Shown: positions 1,316 through 45,394 of the stretch, in pieces
Layout of the letters: the number at the start of each line of letters is the position of its first letter
Numbering within the stretch: position 1 is the first letter of the stretch
Source: Spirochaetia bacterium
Lineage (GTDB): Bacteria > Spirochaetota > Spirochaetia > SP-2023
Direction of reading: 5' to 3'
Length of the DNA: 64,000 nucleotides
Assembly: GCA_965225855.1 (NCBI GenBank)
Contig: CBDDCK010000005.1
Location: forward strand, 288,001 to 352,000
Translations under genes and position numbers: made by a program
Notes under the pieces: model-generated
Databases searched by the model: none
What the model was told of the DNA's origin: nothing
What the model saw: the letters and a program-made list of their open reading frames with translations, nothing else

Positions 1316-1648
1316 AGCATATCGCAAAGTTACACATAGCACTTAAATAAAATCGATTACCTCGTTTGCCGACTACCAACAAACCAGCCAATGCGCAACG
1401 CTAAACATACTAGCCATATTATATTTTTGATATTTTGAAAAATTGTACTAGAAGGCACTGCGGCACTAAGCTATTTATGGCTAGCCTTGCTATTTTTTGA
1501 TAATTGCTTTAGTAATAAAGTTTTTACAGGCAAAATAATTTAGCCTTAAAACGCTCTACTATGACTATATAGATATAAAAACAAATCGCTATTTTCATTG
1601 GGATAGATCAATATAATCCCAAAGCTAATCATCAAAAATAAAACACCC

Positions 1649-2016
1649 TCCAAGCCTTCACAACAGAAACCAAACCGTAACCTAATTATGTACTTTTTAA
1701 AAGTAACAATTATGGATTAGGTCGGCCCATAGTTATCGACTTGTTGCGTCTATAACTATGGATTGGTTGCTTTGATTGTTTATGGATTCCGATAATATTG
1801 AATGCAAATTGATTGGCATTGATTTTTAACCACCTTACAACACTAAAAAACAACACTAACACACAAAAAAAGTGCCCCAAACATAAAAAAAGCACAAAAA
1901 AAGCTTACAAAAAGCTTATATAGGCCTTGACGCAACACCCCCCCTAGCAAAATAGGGATTTACAGACTAGCCCGTATGGGTTGGCCAATCTTTATCCCTT
2001 GTTGGAGGTATTGCTT
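1649..2016 (+). promoter_or_regulatory. Conserved leader of the lipoprotein family, copy 1: TTGACG, C7 tract, RBS GGAGG
   Basis: Near-identical to the reverse complement of 45395-45738 and, in its proximal part, 27217-27395. Confidence 0.7.
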
Positions 2017-4215
2017 ATGTATAAGCACAAACTACTTTTATTGCCTGTAGCATTGCTACTGGCATTTATGGCCTTGGCCTGCGCACCACCCGATGACGAT
2101 GATCGATCTTCTGGGCCGTCTAAGCCGACTATCAATAACGCCATCTACGACTTTGCTACGGCTCTGTTAACCGTACAAGGTACTGACTTAAGTCCTACAG
2201 AAGCGCAAATCCAAACCATCGTAGTAGATGGCATAGCTTTAGATTCCTATACTGCAGATGACCCAGCCACTGGGCCAGATAGTAACGGTCTTGCAAAAGG
2301 TAAGTACCGTATTAAAAGCGATGGCACAAAGCTTTGGCTGAAACTTAAAGATGAACATAAAGCTGCTCTTGAGGCCAAGGTGGGTAGCAATGGTCTAAAA
2401 AAAGGGTTGCTTACTAGCTCTGGTGCTTGGGCGGGTTTAGATACAGCCAAAGACTTAACCGTTAGCAATATACCCGATAAGCAGACCGAAACCGAAGAAG
2501 AGTCGCGTAAGCAAACTGAAGACGAACAAGCTGAAGAAGTCGAAGAGCAGTCGCCTAAGCAAGCTAAAGCCGAACAAGTCGAACAAGCTGAAGAAGAGTC
2601 GCGTAAGCAAACTGAAGTCGAACAAGCTGAAGAAGAGTCGCGTAAGCAAACTGAAGTCGAACAAGCTGAAGAAGAGTCGCGTAAGCAAACTGAAGTCGAA
2701 CAAGCTGAAGAAGAGTCGCCTAAGCAACCTAAAGCCGAACAAGTCGAACAAGCTGCAATTACCCGTGCAAGCTACCATGTTGGCACGGCGCTGTTAACCG
2801 TACAAGGTTCTAACTTAAGTCCTACAACTGCGACCCAAGCCCAAATCCAAACCATCGTGGTAGATGGGGTAGCTTTAGATTCCTATACTGCAGATGCCAC
2901 AGCCACTGGGCCAGATAGTCGTGGTCTTGCAAAAGGTAAGTACCGCATGAAAAGCGATGGCACAGCGCTTTGGCTGAAACTTACCGATCAACATAAAGCT
3001 ACTCTGAATGGCAAAACAGGTATGGATAGCAATGGTCTAAAAGATGGGTTGCTTACTAGCACTGGTGCTTGGGCGGGTTTAGATACAGCCAAAGCCTTGG
3101 ACGTTAGTGGAAACCCCGCACCCACAATTACCCGTGCAACCTATGATGTTACTATAGGCTTCTTAGTGATTACAGGTACTAATTTACCAAAAGCAGTTAC
3201 AGGCTGGGACTTTAGGAAATTGAGGTTTGTCGCAGGTGATGGTAGTAAGAGATACACATTACCACAGCACGACTCATTTTCAGGTAGAAACTCCGCCACA
3301 GGTTCTCGTGCAAGTGCAACAAGCTTACAGATTAATTTAAAGGGTAGTGTAAAAACGGAAGCCGATAAGATACTGGTTAACGATGGTGATAGTGATGCTA
3401 ATGGTGCATACAACCTGGAAGCAGCAGCAGGATTTGCAGGTGGTAGCGCAGAAGACACAACCAATCCTATTACCGTTAGCGGGTATACAGCCAGCATCAC
3501 CGAAGCAACCTACGATGCTAATACAGGCGAGTTATATATTACAGGTGTCAAGTTACCGAGAGCAGTTGCAGACTGGGACTTTAGCAAATTGACACTTGTA
3601 TCCGGTGATGGTAGTAAGAGATACCCATTACCCGAGCACGCAATAGGTGAAAACACAGCCACAGGTTCTAGTCCAGGTGTAACCTACTTAACGATTACTT
3701 TAAGCGGTAGTGTAAAAGCGGAAGCCGAGAAGATACTGGTTAACGATGGTGATAGTGATGCTAATGGTGCATACAACCTGGAAGCAGCAGCAGGCTTTGC
3801 AGGTGGTAGGGCAGAAGACACAAGCAACCCGATTACCGTTAGCGGGTATGTAGCCAAAATCACCTCCGTAATCTACTTTGCTAGTAGAGGCTTGTTACAG
3901 ATTGCAGGTGTTAGGTTACCGAGAGCAGTTGCAGACTGGGACTTTAGCAAATTGACGCTTGTATCCGGTGATGGTAGTAAGAAATACACATTACCACGGC
4001 ACGCAACCGCAGGTGAAAACACAGCCACAGGTTCTAGTGCAAGTGCAACAGGCTTAAATATTACTTTAAGCGGTAGTGTAAAAGCGGAAGTCAATAAGAT
4101 ACTGGTTAAGGCTGGTGAAAGTGATGATGCTGGTGCATACAACCTGGAAGCAGCAGCAGAATTTGCAGGTGGTAGTCCAGAAGACCCAACCACTGGTATT
4201 AATGTTATAAGGTAG
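2017..4215 (+). CDS. Modular surface lipoprotein/adhesin, paralog 1 (A-linker-A-B-B-B)
   Basis: ATG 2017 after GGAGG; signal peptide with lipobox MALA-C; repeated ~120-aa beta-rich domains; acidic linker. Confidence 0.85.
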   Translation: MYKHKLLLLPVALLLAFMALACAPPDDDDRSSGPSKPTINNAIYDFATALLTVQGTDLSPTEAQIQTIVVDGIALDSYTADDPATGPDSNGLAKGKYRIKSDGTKLWLKLKDEHKAALEAKVGSNGLKKGLLTSSGAWAGLDTAKDLTVSNIPDKQTETEEESRKQTEDEQAEEVEEQSPKQAKAEQVEQAEEESRKQTEVEQAEEESRKQTEVEQAEEESRKQTEVEQAEEESPKQPKAEQVEQAAITRASYHVGTALLTVQGSNLSPTTATQAQIQTIVVDGVALDSYTADATATGPDSRGLAKGKYRMKSDGTALWLKLTDQHKATLNGKTGMDSNGLKDGLLTSTGAWAGLDTAKALDVSGNPAPTITRATYDVTIGFLVITGTNLPKAVTGWDFRKLRFVAGDGSKRYTLPQHDSFSGRNSATGSRASATSLQINLKGSVKTEADKILVNDGDSDANGAYNLEAAAGFAGGSAEDTTNPITVSGYTASITEATYDANTGELYITGVKLPRAVADWDFSKLTLVSGDGSKRYPLPEHAIGENTATGSSPGVTYLTITLSGSVKAEAEKILVNDGDSDANGAYNLEAAAGFAGGRAEDTSNPITVSGYVAKITSVIYFASRGLLQIAGVRLPRAVADWDFSKLTLVSGDGSKKYTLPRHATAGENTATGSSASATGLNITLSGSVKAEVNKILVKAGESDDAGAYNLEAAAEFAGGSPEDPTTGINVIR
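2494..2757 (+). repeat. Acidic linker tandem repeats (39-bp unit, EEESRKQTEVEQA)
   Basis: Three consecutive exact 39-bp units at about 2590-2706 plus degenerate flanking units. Confidence 0.9.
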
Positions 4216-4485
4216 GGTTTGGTTGTTGCGGTAAGCAATGCTTGGTTGGCCTATTGTTCGCTTTTAGAACATAGGCTAAGTAGGCAAGCAAGGTTTGGGC
4301 TTTATGCCAAGCTTTGCTTGCCTTTTTTGTGGTTTTCTAGCAAGGTGCGGGACTGGTTTAATACAGCCAATTTTCTGGTGCGTAAATTGCCACCCAAACT
4401 AGCGTCTTCTTCTCGCATTTCCAAAGCCAAAGAAACTAAAGCAAAACCATTTACTAAAATAGACTTGAAACAGTTTTTATTACCA

Positions 4486-4632
4486 CCTTGGCTAAATACG
4501 GGAAGAGCTTTCGGTAAATACGGGGAGAGCCTTGGCTAAATACGGGGAGAGCCTTGGCTAAATACGGGGAGAGCCTTGGCTAAATACGGGAAGAGCCTTG
4601 GCTAAATACGGGAAGAGCTTTCGGTAAATACG
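4486..4632. repeat. 22-bp tandem repeat, about 6.7 units
   Basis: CCTTGGCTAAATACGGG(A/G)AGAG with variant CTTTCGGTAAATACGGGGAGAG; no spacers. Confidence 0.92.
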
Positions 4633-4659
4633 TTTTGCCTGAAAGGCTGCACTTTGGAG

Positions 4660-5766
4660 CTATAATTCAGGGTACTTATGTTCCAGTTCCAGCATGGTTT
4701 GGCATGCTTGGCGGGCAAGTTCTGCAGCGGGGTTGTTGGCTTTTTGCACTGTTTGGCTGTAGGGTGGGCTTAGCATTCGCCGCCAGTACTGCGCTTGGGC
4801 TAGCCCATACCATACAGTTAGCAAAGGCCATATTTGGGCTGCAATACTTTGCTCTTTAGGGTTCTGCTCCAAATAGTGGGCATAACGCTCTATCAGCTCC
4901 GAACGTTTGTGCACAGCTTGTACCCCGCTATTTATATTGAGGGGGGCTGATGGCAACATGGCTTGCGCCAGCATTTGTTTGCGAATATGGAATAACTCCC
5001 AAGTATTTTCATAACTCACACGTCCCAACATTACGCCATCGACATGGGGCCAAACTTGGGCAATTTGTTGGTAGTTTTTTAGCCCGCCATTGAGTTCTAT
5101 GGGTAGCGAAGGCTGTATTTCTTGGCGCAGTCGAAAGACTAGAGGGTAGTTTAGTGGCGGTATTTCGCGGTTTTGTTTTGGGTTGAGTCCATCGAGCACC
5201 GCTATACGGGCATGGACAATTAAGCGGTCACAGAAGGGGGCTACTTGCTGTAAAAATTGGTACAGTTGTTGTTTGCCCCAAGCAGCGATACCACGGCTTT
5301 TTTGTTCAATCCCCAAGCGGTGCTTCAGCGTTATTTGTGGCAAAGGTTGGGATTCTAAATAAAAGTGTTTGGTATCGCGCAGAGCTTGGCGCATGGCTGC
5401 TAGAATATCGGCCACCAAAGGCCCATCATTCATGAGCACCACACCGATATTGCGGTTTTGCACCCTATCACTGGGGCAGCCGGCATTTAAATTAAATTCT
5501 GCAAAATGGCTATTTTGCTGGGCGCAAAACTCGCGCGCAATCAAGACCGCTCGGTAAGCTTCTTTGGGGCAATGGCTGCCCAGTTGCAGGGCAACGGGAG
5601 ATTCGCAAGGGGCTAAACTGAAAAAACGTTGGGGCGGATTATTGATAATGGCCCCAGTGCTAAGCATTTCGGTATACAGCCACATTTCTGGGAATAGCTG
5701 CCGAATAAAATAGCGGAAGTGCGGCTCGGTTTTGTCGATCATCGGAGCCAAAGCGATGCGAGGCAT
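4660..5766 (-). CDS. dusA: tRNA-dihydrouridine synthase, DusA type
   Basis: LAPM, LYTEM, NLNAGCPS, VHARIA.L.GLNPKQNREIPPLNY, GVMLGR motifs. Confidence 0.9.
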   Translation of the reverse strand: MPRIALAPMIDKTEPHFRYFIRQLFPEMWLYTEMLSTGAIINNPPQRFFSLAPCESPVALQLGSHCPKEAYRAVLIAREFCAQQNSHFAEFNLNAGCPSDRVQNRNIGVVLMNDGPLVADILAAMRQALRDTKHFYLESQPLPQITLKHRLGIEQKSRGIAAWGKQQLYQFLQQVAPFCDRLIVHARIAVLDGLNPKQNREIPPLNYPLVFRLRQEIQPSLPIELNGGLKNYQQIAQVWPHVDGVMLGRVSYENTWELFHIRKQMLAQAMLPSAPLNINSGVQAVHKRSELIERYAHYLEQNPKEQSIAAQIWPLLTVWYGLAQAQYWRRMLSPPYSQTVQKANNPAAELARQACQTMLELEHKYPEL

Positions 5767-7673: not shown

Positions 7674-10600
7674 ATGAATCCTGATATATCTACCAAGCAA
7701 ACACCACAACGATTACTCGAATTACTACAGAAGCGAATCTTTAGAGAAAATACGTGCTGGGCAAAGCAACTATGGCGTGAAAGCACACAGCTTAACCCTG
7801 CAATAGCCATATCCCAGATTCTACAGCAACACAGTAAGCTATTAGTTGTATTGCCTAGTAGTGAAGAAATCCAGCAGATTGCCGATGACCTACAAGCCTT
7901 AGGCATAGAACCCTTAATCTTGCATAACTGGAGCAGCAGCCTATATAAAGGTATCCGTTCGCAAAACCGCTTATTTACCAAACGCAGCTCGGTACTAGCA
8001 CGTATACTGTTAAACACAAGCTCTGCGCCTCTGCCTATACTGTGTAGCTTGCGCTCCCTAGCGAAGGTACTACCCCCACCTGCAGAATTTCGTAAACAAA
8101 TCCTACAGTTGCAAGTAGGCAGCGAACTACAACCCAGCAATTTAGCCCAATTATTAAGCAGCTACGGTTACTACCGAGTACCGCGCGTAAGCCTGCCGGG
8201 TGAATTTGCCCTACGTGGTCAAGTGTTGGACTTCTACCCTCCTGAAGATGGGGCCAGTCATACAACCAGTGAAACCCATGAGGTCGGAAGACCAAGCAAA
8301 GTAGCAAGTCAACAAGCTGTACGCGTGATGTTTGGCTTTGATGAAGTAGAAATGCTAAAGGTTTTTGATATTAGCAGCCAAATATCACAATACAGTATAG
8401 CAAGCTTTTCACTATACCCCCTAAAAGAAGTCCTATGGCACCAAATACAGCTAGATAATCTGCGTCAGCACTTAGAAGAAACACTGCTTGGTGAACTGGA
8501 ACAAGGCAACATTGATGAAGAGTTACTAAATGCCCAGCTTGATGAAGTCAACCACCTATTGGGCCAGTTAGCCATACAACAAGAAGTAAAAGCCGAAGAA
8601 TTACTCTTCCCTTTTGCTTGGCAGCAGCCAGCCAGTATTTTGGACTATATAGCAGAAAGTCCTCTACTATTTTGGGGACACCAGCGTATAGAACAACAAG
8701 AGCAGAGCTATTTGCTAGAATTGGAAACATTATATGAGCAAAGCATGGCTGCATTCCAACAAGCTAACCATAGCAGTAAAGGTAGTAAGGGCAGCTCTAA
8801 GCAAGTAGAGAGAATATTCCCCGAATCACTGCAACGTAAACTGTTGCACCCCAAATACTTTGCTGTAGATTTAAGCGCATTGCTCAGTAGCTGTGCACAG
8901 CCTATTATCGTTGATGAATTTGAAGGTAGCCCGTGGCCCATAGAGTTTGAGAGTCCCCTACAATACTATGGTAACATCAATCGCTTTACAGAAGATTTAA
9001 GCCATTGGTTGGAACAAGGGTTTTGCATTTGCATAGGCTGTTCTTCCAAGGGGCAAGCGCAGCGTTTACACCATATGCTACAAGCAACTATTCAACCCTA
9101 CCTACCAGCCGACCATCAGGGCCAGCAGAGTAGTGGTCAAGAACAAGGAGTCCATTTCTTTCCATTCCAATTGAGCCAAGGCATGCTGTTCCCCAAGCAA
9201 AAGCTGGTATTGGTACAAGAATGGGAAATACTGGGTAATGCCTACAAAGGCAGGCATCAAGGGGGCCAAAAGGCTAGGAATAGCGAAAAGGCCGAGCGCA
9301 TAGCCAATCGTTTAAGCCAAAGCCAAATCATTAGCTCTTTTGTCGAGTTAAGGGAAGGAGATACTGTTGTCCATGTACAGCACGGTGTAGGCCGTTTTAA
9401 GGGGATAGAGCGCGTTAGCACTTCGCGCATGGAGCGCGACTACTTAGCCTTGGAATATGCCAATGGCAATACTTTGTTTGTGCCAATTGAACAAGTTAAT
9501 ATGGTGCAACGCTACATTGGTAGTGGCGGTGAGTCTAGCCCAAAGCTGGACCGCATTGGTGGTAAAGCTTGGCAAGAGCGTAAGGCTAAAACCCAGAAAG
9601 CCGTAGAAGATATGGCCGACCGACTACTGCGCCTGTATACCCGCCGTGCGGCTGTTGATGGCTTTGCCTGCGCACCCGATGATGAGCTAGTAGAAGAATT
9701 TGAAGCCGACTTTCCCTATGATCCAACCACAGACCAATTGCAAGCAGTAGTACAAATCAAGGAAGACTTAGAAAGCCCTAGGCCTATGGATCGCCTACTG
9801 TGCGGTGATGTGGGCTTTGGCAAAACCGAAGTAGCCATGAGGGCTAGCTTTAAAGTGGCCAGCCAAGGGCGTCAAGTATTAGTGTTGTGCCCTACCACCA
9901 TTTTAGCCGAACAGCACTACCAAAACTTTAGCCAGCGTTTTAGCCGCTTTCCCTTGCGCGTTGCCATGCTCTCGCGCTTTGTCGAACGCAAGCAACAAAA
10001 AGAGGTGCTCGATTCACTAGAACATGGCAAGGTCGATATTTTGATAGGCACCCACCGCATACTAGCCAAGGATATTCACTTTCATGACCTAGGCTTGATT
10101 GTGGTAGACGAAGAGCAGCGTTTTGGCGTCAAGCATAAGGAACGCCTAAAAATGCTCAAGACTTCGGTGGATAGCCTGACCATGTCGGCCACGCCGATAC
10201 CGCGCACGCTGCATATGTCTTTAGTGCAGATTCGCGATATTTCTATGCTGACAACGCCGCCACGCAACCGCCAGCCGGTGGAAACTTTTGTGCGCGAGTT
10301 TAACCCTCAAAGCATAGCCAATGCAATCCGCCACGAGTTGAGCCGAAACGGGCAGGTGTTCTACCTGCACAACCGTGTGGAAGGCCTAGAAGAAATCTTG
10401 ATATTCTTGCGGGACTTGGTACCCGAAGCCTTGATAGAAATGGCCCACGGCCAGATGGATAGCAAGATGCTAGAAGATATTATGTACCGCTTTGTCCACG
10501 GTGGTTTTAATGTTCTGCTGGCAACGACTATCATTGAAAACGGCATTGATATTCCCAACGTCAATACTATCATTATCGACCGCGCCGACCGCTATGGTAT

Positions 10601-11567
10601 AGGCCAATTGTATCAGCTTCGTGGGCGGGTGGGGCGTTCGGCTCAATTGGCCTATGCATATTTGTTCTATCCCGACCGCAGTGGCCTTAGTGATTTGGCT
10701 TTGAAGCGTTTAAAGATTATTTCGGACTTTACGGAGCTTGGTTCGGGCTTTAAGGTTGCCATGAAGGATTTAGAAGTGCGCGGCGCAGGTAATCTATTGG
10801 GACCAGAGCAATCTGGCAATATTATCTCGGTGGGCTTTGAAATGTATAGCACTATGCTGGCCCAGGCCATGAATGAGCGCAAGTACCAATTGGAGAGCGA
10901 AAACCAAGCGAGATCGAGAAAAGCACAACCAACCAATGAAGAGGTGTTACTAGAATTAGACTACAGTGGCTTTATCCCCGATACCTATATCCCCGATGCA
11001 ACCGAAAAGATTGAGCTATACAAACGCATTTCTTCTATTGACCGAGCAGAAACCTTGATTGCTTTTTATGAAGAATTGTTTGACCGCTTTGGCAATCCGC
11101 CCAGTGAAGTGCATTCGTTGTTGTCACTAGCGGAGGTGCGGATTCTCTGCTGCCAAGTGGGCATTAACTGCTTGAAGGAGCGGGGCCAGCAAGTAGAGCT
11201 GCAGTTTTCCAAAGCGCAGCCCTTGCCACTGGAAAAGATTATGCAGCAAATTCAACGGTACCCAAAAGTGTTCCGCATTGACCCTAAGCGCAGCAATGCT
11301 TTGTTGATAGATTTAGGTTCCTTTATGGAACAGGAACAACAGCAAATGGCTGGTAGCCACAAACAAACGCAACCCTTGGCCCAACAAGGTAGCAAAAGCC
11401 AAGCCAAGCGCAATGCTAACTACCTTGGTTACTTTAAGCAAGAGCAACCGCAGCAAAGCCCAACGGCCAAACAGCTAGAAAAGCAAACCACTAAGCGCAA
11501 GAGCGAAAGCCCCTTGCTACAAAAAACCACCGCCCTGCACAAATTGCTTAGCTCATTTCAAGGCTGA
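7674..11567 (+). CDS. mfd: Transcription-repair coupling factor
   Basis: UvrB-like GEFALRG, CarD/RID VVHVQHGVG, GDVGFGKTEVA, DEEQRFGV, QLRGRVGR, TRCF C-terminal domain. Confidence 0.97.
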   Translation: MNPDISTKQTPQRLLELLQKRIFRENTCWAKQLWRESTQLNPAIAISQILQQHSKLLVVLPSSEEIQQIADDLQALGIEPLILHNWSSSLYKGIRSQNRLFTKRSSVLARILLNTSSAPLPILCSLRSLAKVLPPPAEFRKQILQLQVGSELQPSNLAQLLSSYGYYRVPRVSLPGEFALRGQVLDFYPPEDGASHTTSETHEVGRPSKVASQQAVRVMFGFDEVEMLKVFDISSQISQYSIASFSLYPLKEVLWHQIQLDNLRQHLEETLLGELEQGNIDEELLNAQLDEVNHLLGQLAIQQEVKAEELLFPFAWQQPASILDYIAESPLLFWGHQRIEQQEQSYLLELETLYEQSMAAFQQANHSSKGSKGSSKQVERIFPESLQRKLLHPKYFAVDLSALLSSCAQPIIVDEFEGSPWPIEFESPLQYYGNINRFTEDLSHWLEQGFCICIGCSSKGQAQRLHHMLQATIQPYLPADHQGQQSSGQEQGVHFFPFQLSQGMLFPKQKLVLVQEWEILGNAYKGRHQGGQKARNSEKAERIANRLSQSQIISSFVELREGDTVVHVQHGVGRFKGIERVSTSRMERDYLALEYANGNTLFVPIEQVNMVQRYIGSGGESSPKLDRIGGKAWQERKAKTQKAVEDMADRLLRLYTRRAAVDGFACAPDDELVEEFEADFPYDPTTDQLQAVVQIKEDLESPRPMDRLLCGDVGFGKTEVAMRASFKVASQGRQVLVLCPTTILAEQHYQNFSQRFSRFPLRVAMLSRFVERKQQKEVLDSLEHGKVDILIGTHRILAKDIHFHDLGLIVVDEEQRFGVKHKERLKMLKTSVDSLTMSATPIPRTLHMSLVQIRDISMLTTPPRNRQPVETFVREFNPQSIANAIRHELSRNGQVFYLHNRVEGLEEILIFLRDLVPEALIEMAHGQMDSKMLEDIMYRFVHGGFNVLLATTIIENGIDIPNVNTIIIDRADRYGIGQLYQLRGRVGRSAQLAYAYLFYPDRSGLSDLALKRLKIISDFTELGSGFKVAMKDLEVRGAGNLLGPEQSGNIISVGFEMYSTMLAQAMNERKYQLESENQARSRKAQPTNEEVLLELDYSGFIPDTYIPDATEKIELYKRISSIDRAETLIAFYEELFDRFGNPPSEVHSLLSLAEVRILCCQVGINCLKERGQQVELQFSKAQPLPLEKIMQQIQRYPKVFRIDPKRSNALLIDLGSFMEQEQQQMAGSHKQTQPLAQQGSKSQAKRNANYLGYFKQEQPQQSPTAKQLEKQTTKRKSESPLLQKTTALHKLLSSFQG

Positions 11568-12401: not shown

Positions 12402-13493
12402 ATGTCTCGTAAATCTTCCGTACTTTTGCCCGATAGTATTGCCCCCGATCTGCTGCCGTCCATTGATGTGCCCCAGTTTCGCGGCGGTAGCCGTGGCTAT
12501 GATGTTTGGCGTAAAGCCGATGCCAGCCGTGTGACCCAGCCCCGCCCGATTATAATAGACTGTGATCCCGGGCTTGATGATGCAGTTGCCCTAATGTTGG
12601 CCTGTGCCCACCCCCACAGTATAGACCTACAATTAGTAACCACAGTCTGCGGCAACAGCCATGTGGCCCAGCTGACCAACAATGCTTTACGCTTGTTGCA
12701 TTTGTTTGATTGTAGCCATATACCTGTGGCTCAAGGGTCGTCCCGACCATTGCAGTCCAGCTTGGTAACGGCCGAGTGCGTCCATGGTGTGGATGGCTTG
12801 GGCGGGGTCAAAATTCCCAACAGCCCGGTGGCTGCCATTGCCGATGATGCGGTTTCGGCAATGGCCAAAGCCGTGCAAAGCTGCCCTGCAATCACGATTG
12901 TTGCTACCGGGCCGCTCACCAATGTTGCGTTACTGCTCGAGCAATACCCACACTTAAAGCCCCAGATAATCCAAATAGTTAGCATGGGTGGTGCTGTTTT
13001 CGGCGGTAATATCAGCCCCGCAGCCGAATTTAATTATTATTGCGACCCAGAAAGCGCAGATATTGTCTTGCGCAGTGGTATCCCTGTAGCTATGTTTGGG
13101 CTAGATGTAACCGTACGGGCTAAGTTTTACCAGCACCATATTGATAGCTTGGTAGACACTCCGGCCAAGCGCAAAAATCCCGTGGCCCGCGTGTTCCACT
13201 ATTTAAGTCAATATTGCTTTGACCGCGAGCTACCGCACTTCCTCTATCCCCAAAGGCCACATGGTATGAATATGCACGATGTAACTTGTATTGCCTATTT
13301 GCTGCGCCCAGAGCTTTTCACTCTAAAGCCTTGCCATGTGGTTATCGAGCTAAAGGGCCAGTATACCCGTGGCCAAACGGTAGTGGACTTTCTGGATTTG
13401 ACCGGTCAGCCCCACAATGTAGATGTCGCTTTCCGATTAGATGCCGATGCCTTTTGTTCACTAATTACCGATGCAGTGGCTTCTTACAGTTAA
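12402..13493 (+). CDS. Nucleoside hydrolase (IUNH/Rih family)
   Basis: DCDPGLDDA, VHGVDGLG, TGPLTN, AEFN, MHD motifs. Confidence 0.93.
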   Translation: MSRKSSVLLPDSIAPDLLPSIDVPQFRGGSRGYDVWRKADASRVTQPRPIIIDCDPGLDDAVALMLACAHPHSIDLQLVTTVCGNSHVAQLTNNALRLLHLFDCSHIPVAQGSSRPLQSSLVTAECVHGVDGLGGVKIPNSPVAAIADDAVSAMAKAVQSCPAITIVATGPLTNVALLLEQYPHLKPQIIQIVSMGGAVFGGNISPAAEFNYYCDPESADIVLRSGIPVAMFGLDVTVRAKFYQHHIDSLVDTPAKRKNPVARVFHYLSQYCFDRELPHFLYPQRPHGMNMHDVTCIAYLLRPELFTLKPCHVVIELKGQYTRGQTVVDFLDLTGQPHNVDVAFRLDADAFCSLITDAVASYS

Positions 13494-25002: not shown

Positions 25003-27216
25003 CTATAAATTACCAACGATAATATAATTTGTTGTTGTGTCTGCTGGACTACCCATTACAAATCCTGCTGCTCCTTCAAGGTTGTAATAACCATCAGCAT
25101 CTTGAAAACCAGCTTTAACCAGTATCTTATTGGCTTCCGCTTTTACACTACCGCTTAAAGTAATAGTTACGCTTGTTATACTTGCTGCAGAACCTGTGGC
25201 TGTGTTTTCACCTACGGTTGCGTGCTGGGGTAATGTGTATCTCTTCTTACCATCACCGGATACAAGCGTCAATTTGCTGAAGTCCCAGTCTGCAACTGTT
25301 GTCGGTAAATCAGTACCATTAATCGTTAACACGCCTGTACCAACATTGTAGATTGCGTTGGTGATATGGCTTACACGCCCACTAACGGTAATAGGGTTAT
25401 TGCTTGTGTCTTCAGCGCTACCACCTGCAAATCCTGCTGCTGCTTCCAGGTTGTAAAAACCATCAGCATCACTATCACCATTCTTAACCAATATACTATC
25501 GGCTTTCCCTTTTTCAGTACCCTTTAAAGTAATCGTTAAGCTTGTTGCACTTGCACGAGAACCTTTGGCTCTACTAAAACCGAATGTTGGGTTGTGCCGT
25601 AATAATGGGGCACTCTTAGTACGACCATTACCTGCGACAAGCCTCAATTTGGTGAAGTCCCAGCCTTTAACTGTTTTTGGTAAATTGACACCTGTAATCA
25701 CTAACACGCCTGTAGCAGCATTGTAGGTTGCACGGGTAATTGTGGGTGGGTTTCCACTAACGGCCAAGGCTTTGGCTGTATTTAAACCCGCCCAAGCACC
25801 AGTGCCAACGCTAAGCAACCCATCTTTTAGACCATTGCTATCCATACCTGTCTTGCCATTCAGAGTAGCTTTATGTTGATCGGTAAGGTAAAGCCAAAGC
25901 GCTGTGCCAGCGCTATGCAGGCGGTACTTACCTTTTGCAAGACCGCGACTATCTGGCCCAGTGGCTGTGGCATCTGCAATATAGGAACTTAAGGCTAAGC
26001 CATCTACCACGATGGTTTGGATTTGCGCTTGGGTCGCAGTTGTAGCACTTAAGTGAGTACCTTGCAAGGTTAGCAGCGCCATGCCAACATGGTAGCTTGC
26101 ACTGGTAATTGCGGCTTCAGGCGACTCCTCTTCAGCTTGTTCGACTTGTTCGTCTTCTTCAGCTTGTTCGTCTTCAGTTTGCTTAGATGGCTGATTGTCA
26201 TCGGATACTTTAGACTGCTTATTTTCGGGTATATTCCTAACTTCCAAGTCTTTGGCTGTATCTAAACCCGCCCAAGCACCAGAGCTAGTAAGCAACCCTT
26301 TTTTTAGACCATTGCTATCCATACCTGTCTTGCCATTCAGAGTAGCTTTATGTTGATCGGTAAGGTAAAGCCAAAGCGCTGTGCCAGCGCTATGCAGGCG
26401 GTACTTACCTTTTGCAAGACCGCGACTATCTGGCCCAGTGGCTGTGGCATCTGCAATATAGGAACTTAAGGCTAAGCCATCTACCACGATGGTTTGGATT
26501 TGCGCTTGGGTCGCAGTTGTAGCACTTAAGTGAGTACCTTGCAAGGTTAGCAGCGCCATGCCAACATCGTAGCTTGCACTGGTAATTGCGGCTTCTTCGG
26601 CTTCGGTTTGCTTAGACAACTGCTTATCTTCAGCTTGCTTAGGCGACTGATCTTCGGCTTTAGGTTGCTTAGGCGACTGATCTTCGGCTTTAGGTTGCTT
26701 AGGCGACTCTTCTTCAGCTTGTTCGTCTTGTTCGTCTTCTTCAGCTTGTTCGGGTATATACTTAAAGACCAAGTCTCTAGGTGTATTTAAACCCGCCCAA
26801 GCACCAGAGCTAACGCTAAGCAAGCCTTTTTTTAGACCATTGCTACCCACCTTGGCCTCAAGAGCAGCTTTATGTTCATCTTTAAGTTTCAGCCAAAGCT
26901 TTGTGCCATCGGTTGCAATACGGTACTTACCTTTTGCAAGACCGCTACTATCTGGCCCAGTGGCTGGGTCATCTGCAGTATAGGAACTTAAGGCTACGCC
27001 ATCTACTACGATGGTTTGGATTTGGGCTTCTGTAGGACTTAAGTTAGAACCTTGTACGGTTAACAGAGCCGTAGCAAAGTCGTAGATGGCATTATTGATA
27101 GACGGCCCAGAAGATGGCCCAGAAGATCGATCATCGTCATCGGGTGGGGCGCAGGCCAAGGCCATAAAGGCCAGTAGCCAGGCTACTGGCAATAAAAGTA
27201 GTTTGAGCTTATACAT
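25003..27216 (-). CDS. Modular surface lipoprotein/adhesin, paralog 2 (A-linker-A-linker-A-B-B)
   Basis: Same signal peptide, lipobox and domains as 2017-4215; second and third A domains nearly identical in DNA. Confidence 0.85.
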   Translation of the reverse strand: MYKLKLLLLPVAWLLAFMALACAPPDDDDRSSGPSSGPSINNAIYDFATALLTVQGSNLSPTEAQIQTIVVDGVALSSYTADDPATGPDSSGLAKGKYRIATDGTKLWLKLKDEHKAALEAKVGSNGLKKGLLSVSSGAWAGLNTPRDLVFKYIPEQAEEDEQDEQAEEESPKQPKAEDQSPKQPKAEDQSPKQAEDKQLSKQTEAEEAAITSASYDVGMALLTLQGTHLSATTATQAQIQTIVVDGLALSSYIADATATGPDSRGLAKGKYRLHSAGTALWLYLTDQHKATLNGKTGMDSNGLKKGLLTSSGAWAGLDTAKDLEVRNIPENKQSKVSDDNQPSKQTEDEQAEEDEQVEQAEEESPEAAITSASYHVGMALLTLQGTHLSATTATQAQIQTIVVDGLALSSYIADATATGPDSRGLAKGKYRLHSAGTALWLYLTDQHKATLNGKTGMDSNGLKDGLLSVGTGAWAGLNTAKALAVSGNPPTITRATYNAATGVLVITGVNLPKTVKGWDFTKLRLVAGNGRTKSAPLLRHNPTFGFSRAKGSRASATSLTITLKGTEKGKADSILVKNGDSDADGFYNLEAAAGFAGGSAEDTSNNPITVSGRVSHITNAIYNVGTGVLTINGTDLPTTVADWDFSKLTLVSGDGKKRYTLPQHATVGENTATGSAASITSVTITLSGSVKAEANKILVKAGFQDADGYYNLEGAAGFVMGSPADTTTNYIIVGNL

Positions 27217-43291: not shown

Positions 43292-45394
43292 TTACTTACT
43301 AACGAATATACTAGTGGTTAGGTCTTCTGCGCTACCACCTGCAAATCCTGCTGCTGCTTCCAGGTTGTATGCACCATTAGCATCACGAAGACCTTCCTTA
43401 ACCAGTATTGCATTAGCTTCCGCTTTTACACTACCGCTTAAAGTAATCCTTAAGAATGTTGCACGTGCACTAGAACCTGTGGCTTTATTTTCACCTGCGG
43501 TTGCGTGCCGGGGTAATGTGTATTTCTTCTTACCATCACCGGATACAATCGTCAATTTGCTAAAGTCCCAGCCTGCAACTGCTGTCGGTAACCTGTTACC
43601 ATAAATATTTAACTTGCCAGTATTAGGAAAGTAGTATGAGAGGTCGATCTGGCTTACGTAGCCACTAACGGTAATAGGGTTGCTTGTGTCTGCTGCGCTA
43701 CCACCTGAAAATCCTGCTGCTGCTTCCAGGTTGTATGCACCAGCATTATCACTTTTACCATCGTTAACCAGTATCTTCTCGGCTTCCGCTTTTACACTAC
43801 CGCTTAAAGTAATCGTTAAGCTGTTTCTACTTGCACCAGAACCTGTGGCTGTGTTTGCACCTATTGCGTGCCGGGGTAATGTGTATCTCTTACTACCATC
43901 ACCGGATACAAGCGTCAATTTGCTAAAGTCCCAACCTGCAACTGTTTCCGGTAAACCGCCACCATTAATATATAACACACCTGTGTTAACATTGTAGTAT
44001 AAGTCTTTGATAAAACCTACATACCCACTAACGGTAATAGGGTTATTGCTTGTGTCTTCTGCCCTACCACCTGCAAATCCTGCTGCTGCTTCCAGGTTGT
44101 ATGCACCAGCATCATCACTTTCACCATCGTTAACCAGTATCTTCTCGGCTTCCGCTTTTACACTACCGATTAAAGTAATCTTTAAGAATGTTGCACTTGC
44201 ATTAGAACCTACGGCTCTGTTTATACCGGTTAGGTTGTGCCGTGGTAATGTGTATCTCTTACTACCATCACCAGATACAAGCGTCAATTTGCTAAAGTCC
44301 CAGCTATTCACTGCTTTTGGTAAATTAGTACCTGTAATCTCTAAGAAGCTTAAAGTAACATCATAGGTTGCACTGGTAATTGCGGGTGGGTTTCCACTAA
44401 CGGCCAAGGCTTTGGCTGTATCTAAACCCGCCCAAGCACCAGTGCTAGTAAGCAACCCATCTTTTAGACCATTGCTATCCATACCGTCCTTGCCATTCAG
44501 AGTAGTTTTATGTTGATCGGTAAGGTAAAGCCAAAGCGCTGTGCCATCGCTTTTAATACGGTACTTACCTTTTGCAAGACTGCGACTATCTGGCCCAGTG
44601 GCTGTGCCATCTGCAGTATAAGAATTTAAGGCTAGGCCATCTACAGTGATAGTTTGGATTTGCGCTTGTTGCGCACTAGCTAAGTGAGTACCTTGTAAAG
44701 TTAACAGCGCCGTGCCAACATGGTAGGTTGCACGGGTAATTGTGGCTTTAGGCGAATCCTCTTCGACTTGTTCGACTTGTTCGTCTTTAGGTTGCTTAGG
44801 CGACTCTTCTTCAGCTTGTTCGACTTGTTTGTCTTTAGGTTGCTTAGGCGATTGATCATCGACTTCTTCGGTTTGTTCGGCTTCGGGTAACTTAGGCGAC
44901 TCTTCTTCGGCTTCGGTCTTAGACTGCTTATCGGGTATATACTTAAAGACCAAGTCTCTAGGTGTATTTAAACCCGCCCAAGCACCAGAGCCAACGCTAA
45001 GCAACCCTTTTTTTAGACCATTGCTATCCACCTTGCCATTCAGAGTAGCTTTATGTCGATCGGTAAGTCTAAGCCAAAGCGCTGTGCCATCGCCTTTAAT
45101 ACGGTACTTACCTTGTTCAAGACCGTTACTATCTTCACCAGTGGCTGGGTCATCTGCAGTATAGGAACTTAAGGCTACGCCATATACTTTGATAGTTTTG
45201 ATTTGCGCTTCTGTAGGACTTAAGTTAGAACCTTGTATGGTTAACAGAGCCGTGCCAACATCGTAGATGGCGTTATTGATAGTCGGCTTAGACGGCCCAG
45301 AAGACGGCGCATCGTCATCGGGTGGGGTGCAGGCCAAGGCCATAAAGGCCAGTAGCAGTGCTACAGGCAATAAAAATAGTTTGAGCTTATACAT
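43292..45394 (-). CDS. Modular surface lipoprotein/adhesin, paralog 3 (A-linker-A-B-B-B)
   Basis: Same signal peptide, lipobox and domains as the other two copies. Confidence 0.85.
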   Translation of the reverse strand: MYKLKLFLLPVALLLAFMALACTPPDDDAPSSGPSKPTINNAIYDVGTALLTIQGSNLSPTEAQIKTIKVYGVALSSYTADDPATGEDSNGLEQGKYRIKGDGTALWLRLTDRHKATLNGKVDSNGLKKGLLSVGSGAWAGLNTPRDLVFKYIPDKQSKTEAEEESPKLPEAEQTEEVDDQSPKQPKDKQVEQAEEESPKQPKDEQVEQVEEDSPKATITRATYHVGTALLTLQGTHLASAQQAQIQTITVDGLALNSYTADGTATGPDSRSLAKGKYRIKSDGTALWLYLTDQHKTTLNGKDGMDSNGLKDGLLTSTGAWAGLDTAKALAVSGNPPAITSATYDVTLSFLEITGTNLPKAVNSWDFSKLTLVSGDGSKRYTLPRHNLTGINRAVGSNASATFLKITLIGSVKAEAEKILVNDGESDDAGAYNLEAAAGFAGGRAEDTSNNPITVSGYVGFIKDLYYNVNTGVLYINGGGLPETVAGWDFSKLTLVSGDGSKRYTLPRHAIGANTATGSGASRNSLTITLSGSVKAEAEKILVNDGKSDNAGAYNLEAAAGFSGGSAADTSNPITVSGYVSQIDLSYYFPNTGKLNIYGNRLPTAVAGWDFSKLTIVSGDGKKKYTLPRHATAGENKATGSSARATFLRITLSGSVKAEANAILVKEGLRDANGAYNLEAAAGFAGGSAEDLTTSIFVSK

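Follow-up and report, generated by a model that had tools for sequence, protein, structure and literature searches.

The window analyzed here, 64,000 nucleotides of a Spirochaetia bacterium (GenBank assembly GCA_965225855.1, contig CBDDCK010000005.1, positions 288,001 to 352,000), contains three paralogous lipoprotein genes built from two repeated domains, A and B. The B domain, approximately 120 residues in length, varies at fixed positions on a nearly uniform scaffold, and this pattern is far beyond chance and extends across the genome. The explanation that we consider probable is diversifying selection on one exposed face, formed by strands A, B and E, of the middle and last, probably immunoglobulin (Ig)-like B domains of each protein, with the variants spread by short-tract gene conversion. 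A first-pass annotation had counted eight B domains in the window, and this count was borne out, with three, three and two domains in the three genes. Positions below are those of the window, columns are those of the B-domain alignment, and first, middle and last refer to the order of the B domains within a protein.

3127..3495, plus strand: B1 of paralog 1, a first-type B domain with a conserved A-B-E face and its variable patch at columns 43-57 and 71-80
3496..3858, plus strand: B2 of paralog 1, of the middle type, its A-B-E face hypervariable; the AlphaFold2 model is of this domain
3859..4212, plus strand: B3 of paralog 1, a last-type B domain, the most variable class
25003..27216 (or to 27252), minus strand: paralog 3, of order A-A-A-B-B, with its two B domains at 25366-25740 and 25006-25365 and a C7 tract in the predicted promoter
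43292..45394 (or to 45430), minus strand: paralog 2, of order A-A-B-B-B, with its three B domains at 44012-44380, 43649-44011 and 43295-43648 and a C6 tract in the predicted promoter

B domains vary at fixed positions on a nearly uniform scaffold

The description of long, almost identical stretches interrupted by radically changing positions was first drawn from short strings in the eight window domains, and every one of these was found in the eight-domain alignment: WDFSKLTLVSGDG, LSGSVKAEA and YNLEAAAGFAGG for the scaffold, and the four ITEATYDANTGELYITG-type strands together with ATSLQI, VTYLTI, ATFLKI and RNSLTI for the variable positions. Forty-two columns were invariant across all eight domains. 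The statement that B2 and B3 of paralog 1 differ in this strand by nonsynonymous, often multi-base changes also held: nine codons are changed in columns 1-17, all of them nonsynonymously, and the codons between them are identical. Four of the nine involve two or three bases (GAA>TCC, GAT>TTT, GAG>TTG and TAT>CAG). The first synonymous change between the two domains is GTC>GTT at column 18, and over the whole domain 36 codons differ nonsynonymously and 4 synonymously. At the DNA level the three B domains of paralog 1 appear as a tandem repeat (Tandem Repeats Finder over 3136-4192: period 363, 2.9 copies, 83% matches).

The family extends throughout the genome, which is represented by an assembly of 2.71 Mb in 5 contigs that is 94% complete. 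The AccC protein of this spirochete has its closest relatives, at 57-59% identity, in metagenome-assembled genomes labeled Sediminispirochaeta or Spirochaetaceae. A hidden Markov model (HMM) of the B domain found 260 domains in 107 open reading frames (ORFs), equal to 8.3% of the genome DNA (2.71 Mb), and an A-domain HMM found 257 domains in 110 ORFs. In total, 112 family genes with A(n)B(m) architectures were recognized, the commonest being AABB (36 genes), AABBB (20), ABBB (15) and AAABB (12), and identical B domains occur in different genes. There are also two long members with interleaved A and B domains (ABAABABB and similar), at C5:353640-357602 (1320 aa) and C5:571721-574801 (1026 aa); both are without a recognizable signal peptide, and they may be products of fusion or recombination.

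Per-column entropy was calculated over 257 B domains. Hypervariable columns reached 2.5-3.2 bits, and I1, Y6, L13, G17, W27 and L32 were close to zero. Variable and invariant columns alternate along the strands: 3, 5, 7 and 9 with invariant 6; 12, 14, 16 and 18 with invariant 13, 15 and 17; and 60, 63, 65 and 67 with invariant 66, 68 and 70. In the middle and last domains taken together, columns 3, 5, 7, 12, 14, 16, 18, 60, 65 and 67 reach 2.9-3.5 bits and columns 6, 13, 15, 17, 68 and 70 do not exceed 0.2 bits; in the last domains, columns 113, 115 and 117 at the edge of strand G are variable as well. The first domains have a different variable patch. Their A-B hairpin is nearly fixed (0.1-1.2 bits), and their variation lies in columns 43-57 and 71-80. 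The first impression that terminal domains are the most divergent stands in part: the last domains are indeed the most variable (mean 1.17 bits), followed by the first (1.00 bits), and the middle domains are the least variable (0.84 bits).

The classes differ in composition too. Tyr (7-9%, compared with 3% elsewhere), Arg and Asn are overrepresented on the face of the middle and last domains, and the corresponding face of the first domains consists of Thr, Ser, Val and Ala. Among 105 last domains, 98 distinct 12-residue face signatures were counted.

Nonsynonymous change exceeds synonymous change in the B domains

For all 28 pairs of the eight window domains, whole-domain ratios of nonsynonymous to synonymous change (dN/dS, Nei-Gojobori) ranged from 0.86 to 1.95, with dS between 0.12 and 0.33. 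A tree-free test was then based on 120 disjoint nearest-neighbor pairs among the 257 B domains, for which the ratio of the corresponding proportions of differences, pN/pS, was 1.45. In these pairs, a nonsynonymous excess was detected at 35 of 122 codons (p<0.01), 19 of which pass Bonferroni correction, and a deficit at 15; 59% of the nonsynonymous differences fell in 31 columns, referred to below as the hottest columns. The same procedure applied to the A domains gave a pN/pS of 0.84 and positive sites at 16 of 116 codons.

Maximum likelihood (ML) fits with IQ-TREE (GY+F3X4+G4) were made on 44-45 unique sequences from each class; all 44 sequences of the middle class were included, and the other classes were sampled at random. 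The estimated dN/dS, omega, was 1.81 for first, 2.26 for middle and 2.73 for last domains, with 2dlnL values against omega=1 of 53, 83 and 134, respectively, and the A domains, taken from the same genes, gave 1.01 (2dlnL 0.02). Because recombination is present, the middle and last domains were also cut into four segments, each fitted on a separate tree. Omega was 3.9 for columns 1-26 (2dlnL 73), 1.5 for columns 27-59 (5.1), 6.9 for columns 60-93 (86) and 0.87 for columns 94-112 (0.4). Over the whole domain, dN/dS in the B domains thus lies above 1 by disjoint pairs and by ML, and it is highest in the two segments that hold the face.

Inferred contacts place the variable strand residues on one side of a beta sheet

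An AlphaFold2 model of B2, made from an alignment of 85 B domains, had a mean predicted local distance difference test score (pLDDT) of 93 and a predicted template modeling score (pTM) of 0.87. It is a beta sandwich with one helix, and its strands run from 3-7, 12-16, 32-35, 42-44, 55-58, 64-69, 94-97 and 112-116. The model of the A domain was poor (pLDDT 54), and an hhalign comparison of the A and B profiles aligned the first 25 columns only (probability 46%).

Contacts within the B domain were obtained by mean-field direct coupling analysis (DCA) of homologous repeats that belong to other organisms (978 unique sequences, effective number 795). The top signal was an antiparallel ladder between strands B and E (15-66, 13-68, 12-69, 14-67 and 12-67), accompanied by an A-B hairpin (5-14 and 6-13) and by contacts across the core between the two sheets, in which columns 13, 66 and 68 pair with 27, 29, 32 and 45 (for example 29-68, 13-45 and 27-66). 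Within the family itself, mutual information linked columns 14-67, 16-64, 12-67, 5-117 and 7-115. Since opposed residues of an antiparallel ladder share a side, columns 3/5/7, 12/14/16/18 and 63/65/67 lie together on the side of the A-B-E sheet that points away from the core. The variable loop 85-91 adjoins this face, because DCA places 85-87 in contact with column 8. Rather than being scattered over the structure, the variable residues of strands A, B and E are therefore the outward, alternate residues of one sheet. Variable columns of the first domains (43, 46-49 and 71-74) are likewise in contact with one another by both mutual information and DCA, which indicates that these domains carry a second variable patch.

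The same face is only averagely variable in distant homologs

A search of 40 further genomes from this class, 3 of them congeneric, found no match to the family. A search for homologous proteins returned 89, of which 84 are from the same genome and 5 from European Nucleotide Archive (ENA) assemblies. The five are lipoproteins that are 47-52% identical over the searched B region and, compared with their nearest genes in this genome, 76-86% identical over their full length; no one-to-one identical orthologs were found among them. When their B domains were compared with the nearest domains of this genome, 73 of 149 differences fell in the 31 hottest columns, which make up 25% of all columns. This suggests, without proving it, turnover of the repertoire between strains.

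That the family is unique to this genome was considered and rejected: a two-motif pattern scan had given 43 stretches, none of which was confirmed, and the scan was too narrow, since a profile search did find relatives. The B profile, searched against 1.84 billion representative proteins, matched 440 of them at E<=0.001; 262 remained when the threshold was set to E<=1e-10, and 100 when it was set to E<=1e-30. Most of the foreign B-like proteins are 2,000-5,400 residues in length with up to 19 repeats each; one example is WP_284381991.1 from Litoribrevibacter albus, and the names given at source are "tandem-95 repeat protein" and "DUF4347 domain-containing protein". In a domain scan of nine of them, two had known adhesin-type parts and four were without any match. 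The two are P0092, with DUF4347, Big_9, cadherin-like, Calx-beta and TSP3 repeat parts and an OmpA-like end, and P0095, with DUF4347, DUF4214 and RTX repeats. The foreign repeats share with those of the family the core motifs I..A.Y...TG.L.V.G..., YNL.AA and ITVS.

The three whole window proteins had no Pfam or NCBIfam match beyond sub-threshold noise. For the bacterial Ig-like, cadherin-like and SWM_repeat (PF13753) models of Pfam in particular, there was no match at E<=1 with the three proteins or at E<=10 with 85 B domains. An identity with SWM_repeat had been put forward by an Atlas feature (score 0.92, 155-157 shared features), but it was unconfirmed by HMM. A search of Protein Data Bank (PDB) sequences with the B profile gave one row at chance level (E 0.71). 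Since the B-like repeat is covered neither by a Pfam or NCBIfam model nor by a solved structure, it is a candidate new domain family, and the B domain belongs to this uncatalogued family of adhesin repeats.

To compare variability, 979 near-full-length repeats were taken from the best 145 proteins beyond the earlier set of 89. Five repeats that were more than 55% identical to a domain of this genome (three of them from P0094, which is encoded by this genome) were excluded, and 974 repeats from 136 proteins were kept. In these, the ten face columns had a mean entropy of 1.82 bits compared with 1.80 bits for the other columns, and their median rank was 56 of 117. In the middle and last domains of the family, the same ten columns had 3.09 bits compared with 1.01 bits for the rest, with a median rank of 111 of 117. 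The foreign repeats mostly carry Thr at column 16 (850 of 974) and Ser at column 3 (800 of 974). The A-B-E face is therefore an ordinary, rather conserved Thr/Ser ladder, both in the ancestral repeat and in the first domains of the family, and hypervariability is specific to this lineage and to its distal domains. The relationship with the repeat of giant, adhesin-like proteins is one of true sequence homology, significant over the full domain. The foreign repeats sit in tandem arrays within single giant proteins, whereas here the domains are distributed over approximately 110 small lipoproteins. The A-B-E face, conserved in the foreign repeats when these are compared at the protein level, is the most variable part of the domain here.

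These comparisons bear on the possibility that constraint was merely relaxed and that a young, fast-expanded family has been drifting neutrally at its exposed positions. Several observations would fit such drift: the A domains of the same genes have an omega of 1.01, dS is low across the family (0.12-0.33), and the family, not found in the 40 searched genomes of the class with their 3 members of the same genus, looks recently expanded. However, omega is significantly greater than 1 in all three classes of B domain and rises to 3.9 and 6.9 in the segments that form the face, and at many columns pN is 3-5 times the global pS. The face positions are also not intrinsically unconstrained, because the same columns are only averagely variable in 974 foreign repeats that are far more diverged. 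Hypervariability that is limited to distal domains is hard to explain by a generic relaxation of surface positions, and we regard neutral drift as an unlikely explanation for the pattern as a whole.

Variant patches recur among paralogs

Closely related B domains were compared to examine how variants arise and spread. The 13 pairs with less than 3% divergence contain 56 changed codons among 1552; in 17 of the 56, two or three bases are altered, and synonymous changes are almost lacking. In 27 pairs that are less than 6% divergent, the differing codons are clustered: 93 neighbor gaps were counted compared with 34.3 +/- 4.9 expected from the column rates, and the observed count was exceeded in 0 of 2000 simulations. 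Of 24 patches with at least three clustered codons, both alleles were found elsewhere in 9 cases, one allele in 10 and neither in 5. The domains that hold both alleles of a patch otherwise differ by 3-30%, mostly by more than 10%. Clustered patches that recur in distant paralogs indicate short-tract gene conversion, as judged from the pattern of shared alleles, and conversion also helps to keep the scaffold uniform.

Could conversion be sufficient on its own? The scaffold would then be homogenized around old, diverged islands, and the nonsynonymous excess would be a by-product of mosaic ancestry. The strong clustering of differences, the patches shared with distant paralogs and the domains that are identical between genes are all as expected for such a process. 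Conversion nevertheless copies synonymous and nonsynonymous differences alike, so the ratio cannot exceed 1, and synonymous change in the patches is low: 78% of the changes at the 31 hottest columns fall at codon positions 1 and 2, leaving 22% at the third position compared with 34% elsewhere. Because conversion alone cannot raise dN over dS, it is better seen as the means by which variants spread, with selection as the filter. We therefore treat gene conversion as a part of the best explanation and not as a substitute for selection; as the sole cause, we find it improbable.

Sequencing reads related to the genome were available as Logan contigs. The share of sampled words present was 70-72% in three runs of a single study and approximately 20% in two runs of a second one, and no RNA run was found. 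The family region is represented in these contigs by 943-1866 short fragments per run that derive from all paralogs and are not specific to the locus. The unique flank at 4603-5600 was 100% identical in one run (X2) and had 11 differences in 635 bases (approximately 98% identity) in another (X5). Four of the seven listed differences in X5 are synonymous in the Dus gene, a sample that is too small to serve as a control.

Fold comparisons and targeted mutation

The strand order of the B2 model and the inferred pairing of strands A, B and E fit an Ig-like beta-sandwich fold. A Foldseek search of the PDB with the model gave no match at E<=0.001; the best match was to antibody light chains (E 5.8e-3, TM approximately 0.4), a weak Ig-like resemblance. 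With VIA-align, the best matches were to the Ig-like domain of the S-layer protein SbsC (4uj6/2ra1; Z 7.6 and 7.0, root-mean-square deviation 3.0-3.1 over 94 residues), followed by Sap and EA1 of B. anthracis (Z 5.5-5.6) and then by archaeal pilins and IPT-type domains, all of them in the range in which the aligner warns of a possibly common arrangement (Z <8). The likeness to the S-layer domains of SbsC, Sap and EA1 is at the level of fold only, with sequence identities of 10-16%.

S-layer domains as the best fold matches (SbsC Z 7.6; Sap and EA1), together with the 20% of aliphatic residues on the face of the last domains, raise the question of whether the variable face is an internal interface that packs against neighboring domains or lattice copies and co-evolves with its partner. 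The Z values are, however, in the range that the aligner itself assigns to common arrangements, 98 signatures among 105 last domains are hard to fit to a shared lattice contact, and the last domain has no following domain on which to pack. We consider an internal interface very unlikely.

Targeted hypermutation of fixed codons by a diversity-generating retroelement (DGR) or a similar mutator, which the fixed variable positions on an invariant scaffold and the common multi-base codon changes resemble, is scarcely credible, because the reverse transcriptase model PF00078 (RVT_1) had 0 matches in the genome (94% complete) in a search that responded in 3 of 14 control genomes; replacement at the 31 hottest codons is about equally frequent for each consensus base (A 0.29, C 0.36, G 0.38 and T 0.28), with no adenine bias; and the variation is spread over more than 250 separately encoded domains instead of one variable region with its template repeat.

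Weighing diversifying selection on the face

The first-pass annotation had proposed diversifying selection on one exposed beta-sheet face, and the analysis supports it: dN/dS is greater than 1, and inferred contacts put the variable strand residues on one side of a sheet. To that reading it adds a separate patch in the first domains, gene conversion as the process that distributes variants, and a face that was conserved before this lineage diversified it.

Several points weigh against diversifying selection on a single face or reduce its strength. Recombination is clearly present and inflates tree-based likelihood tests, an effect that the pair and per-segment analyses lessen but do not remove, and multi-nucleotide events (17 of the 56 changed codons in pairs less than 3% divergent) can raise omega. 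The A-domain omega of approximately 1 indicates that the whole family evolves fast, and part of the signal may be relaxed constraint. The assignment to one surface is indirect, in that it was made from secondary structure and inferred contacts and not from model coordinates. Variation is also found in loops 47-53 and 85-91, in columns 22-26 and in the linker, and the first domains use another patch. Lastly, surface exposure, lipidation, expression, switching and the existence of a ligand are all predictions.

With these points in mind, a working model can be outlined. The outer A-B-E face of the middle and last B domains is likely to be kept hypervariable by diversifying selection, and its variants are likely to be passed between paralogs by short gene conversions. 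The proteins would be lipid-anchored through their N-terminal Cys and exposed at the cell surface, their C-terminal B domains facing away from the cell; an N-terminal anchor would make the last domain the most distal. The variable face would be a recognition surface, either binding or antigenic, and slippage of a poly-C tract in the promoter spacer may switch each gene on or off, so that few of the approximately 110 variants would be displayed per cell. Ligand binding, immune evasion, phage evasion and kin recognition are all candidate drivers, and the sequence data do not tell them apart.

Nearly all predicted promoters carry a poly-C tract in the spacer

The elements that precede paralog 1 are as follows.

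1927..1953, plus strand: predicted promoter of paralog 1, with TTGACG at 1927-1932, a 15-nt spacer containing C7 (1938-1944) and CAAAAT at 1948-1953
2004-2008, plus strand: ribosome-binding site (RBS) GGAGG, preceding the ATG at 2017
2017..2082, plus strand: signal peptide MYKHKLLLLPVALLLAFMALAC with a lipobox-like end, Cys codon at 2080-2082; lipidation is predicted from the motif

Near-identical upstream regions were found for 105 genes, each with TTGAC(G/T), a poly-C spacer, CA(A/C)AAT, a hairpin-forming leader and GGAGG. The signal peptide MYK[LH]KL[LF]LLPVA.LLAFMA[LF]AC, ending in the lipobox Cys, is likewise present in 105 of the 112 family genes; a predicted promoter, RBS and signal peptide are present in 105 of 112, and a recognizable N terminus is wanting in only 6 copies. 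In paralog 1, a conserved stretch able to form a hairpin, CTAGCCCGTATGGGTTGG, separates the predicted promoter from the RBS at approximately 1968-1985, and the same element occurs in nearly all 5' leaders of the family (for example at L111 63-80 on the minus strand).

The length of the poly-C tract was read in 106 upstream regions: it is C6 in 19 copies, C7 in 84, C8 in 1 and C9 in 1, and it is absent in 1. The spacer is 15 nt at C7, 16 nt at C8 and 17 nt at C9. A consensus scan allowing spacers of 16-18 nt found no promoter at the C7 site of paralog 1, and it did match the C9 copy at C5:800631-803198 (TTGACT-17-CACAAT) and the C8 copy that begins at C5:1508576 (TTGACG-16-CAAAAT). In this assembly, a canonical spacer of 16-17 nt is therefore present in only 2 of 105 copies, from which nearly all copies are predicted to be off in the sequenced state.

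Comparison with known variable surface proteins

Most known large families of variable surface proteins that can be switched on and off come from pathogens, among them mycoplasmas, Borrelia and Neisseria. The vlhA family of Mycoplasma gallisepticum fills a share of its genome comparable to that of the family described here. In Mycoplasma hyorhinis, a homopolymer tract in the promoter spacer sets Vlp lipoprotein genes on or off; the Vlp family has few members, in which variation comes chiefly from tandem-repeat size and not from a hypervariable domain face. The position of the homopolymer in the spacer is thus the same as here, and the small family and the size variation are unlike what is found here.

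The vlhA (pMGA) genes are described as a large family of lipoprotein hemagglutinins with their own promoters, in which a simple repeat governs expression and which is thought to serve immune escape (PMC6258824, in the part of the article that was accessible). On that description, the two families are alike in their working, each being a large lipoprotein family with a promoter and a simple repeat per gene. They differ in the repeat, which for vlhA is GAA, located upstream of the promoter, and here is poly-C inside the -35/-10 spacer, and a hypervariable sheet face with omega greater than 2 is not among the features described in the accessible part of PMC6258824. There is no sequence relation between vlhA and the window family, which had no Pfam or NCBIfam match.

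Cassette-type antigenic variation by gene conversion is known from TprK of Treponema pallidum and pilE/pilS of Neisseria. VlsE of Borrelia is a within-host antigenic variation protein (PMC9604149, again as far as the accessible part of the article describes it). In VlsE, TprK and pilE, short patches move between copies by gene conversion, and here at least one allele was found elsewhere for 19 of 24 patches. Those systems use one expression site with promoterless silent cassettes, whereas here a separate predicted promoter, RBS and signal peptide accompany 105 of the 112 genes. The family thus appears to work like the phase-variable lipoproteins of mycoplasmas and, in the exchange of patches, like cassette variation, and by analogy alone, since it is homologous to neither.

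The targets of DGRs, such as Mtd of Bordetella phage and TvpA of Treponema denticola, are surface or lipoprotein receptors with fixed variable positions on an otherwise invariant scaffold of the C-type lectin fold. The B domains share the fixed variable positions with them, but no reverse transcriptase match, template repeat or adenine pattern was found here, and the predicted B-domain fold is Ig-like and not of the C-type lectin kind.

Other features of the window

The remaining features of paralog 1 are listed below. Its order is signal peptide, A1, an acidic repeat linker, A2, B1, B2 and B3, and a database entry of 732 aa (P0003) is 100% identical to it across the part that was searched.

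2017..4215, plus strand: paralog 1, lipoprotein gene of 732 aa, inside the ORF 1981..4215 with a likely start at ATG 2017
2131..2475, plus strand: A domain 1, of the A-domain HMM family
2494..2748, plus strand: acidic linker of 39-nt tandem repeats (EEESRKQTEVEQA units), from tandem-repeat analysis
2758..3117, plus strand: A domain 2, of the A-domain HMM family
4282..4323, plus strand: terminator-like hairpin with a 17-bp stem followed by a T run, 3' of the paralog 1 stop codon

The linker at 2494-2748 contains 4.3-5.9 copies of the 39-nt unit, with matches of up to 96%, and this repeat is a likely source of size variation among the paralogs. The repeated unit around paralog 1 spans approximately 1600 to 4300, and its outer flanks (1600-1800 and 4200-4300) are common to approximately 23 copies in the genome. 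Motifs read from the translation only identify an Mfd-like transcription-repair coupling factor at 7674-11567. Its neighbors are ordinary housekeeping genes, namely Dus (4660-5766) and a nucleoside hydrolase (12402-13493).

Implications for the family

A more far-reaching interpretation is that the family is a germline repertoire resembling an antibody library. More than 250 Ig-like domains would be encoded, approximately 150 of them (middle and last) with a paratope-like Tyr/Arg/Asn face on the scaffold of a giant adhesin. Patchwise conversion, the scattering of phage-derived cassettes and promoter slippage would diversify and distribute it, with one or a few specificities per cell, and it would bind changing ligands (host, prey, particle or kin) and not merely hide the cell from immunity. 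We offer this tentatively and consider it rather unlikely in its full form.

With 112 genes and 260 domains in 2.7 Mb, the family allows selection to be read per residue on a small, confidently modeled domain, and its foreign homologs provide a natural control in which a structural adhesin repeat can be compared with the hypervariable module into which it was turned. The B domain is a widespread, uncatalogued repeat with 440 representative proteins and a candidate natural scaffold for variable binding surfaces. The family could show how gene conversion, promoter slippage and mobile cassettes jointly build a repertoire.

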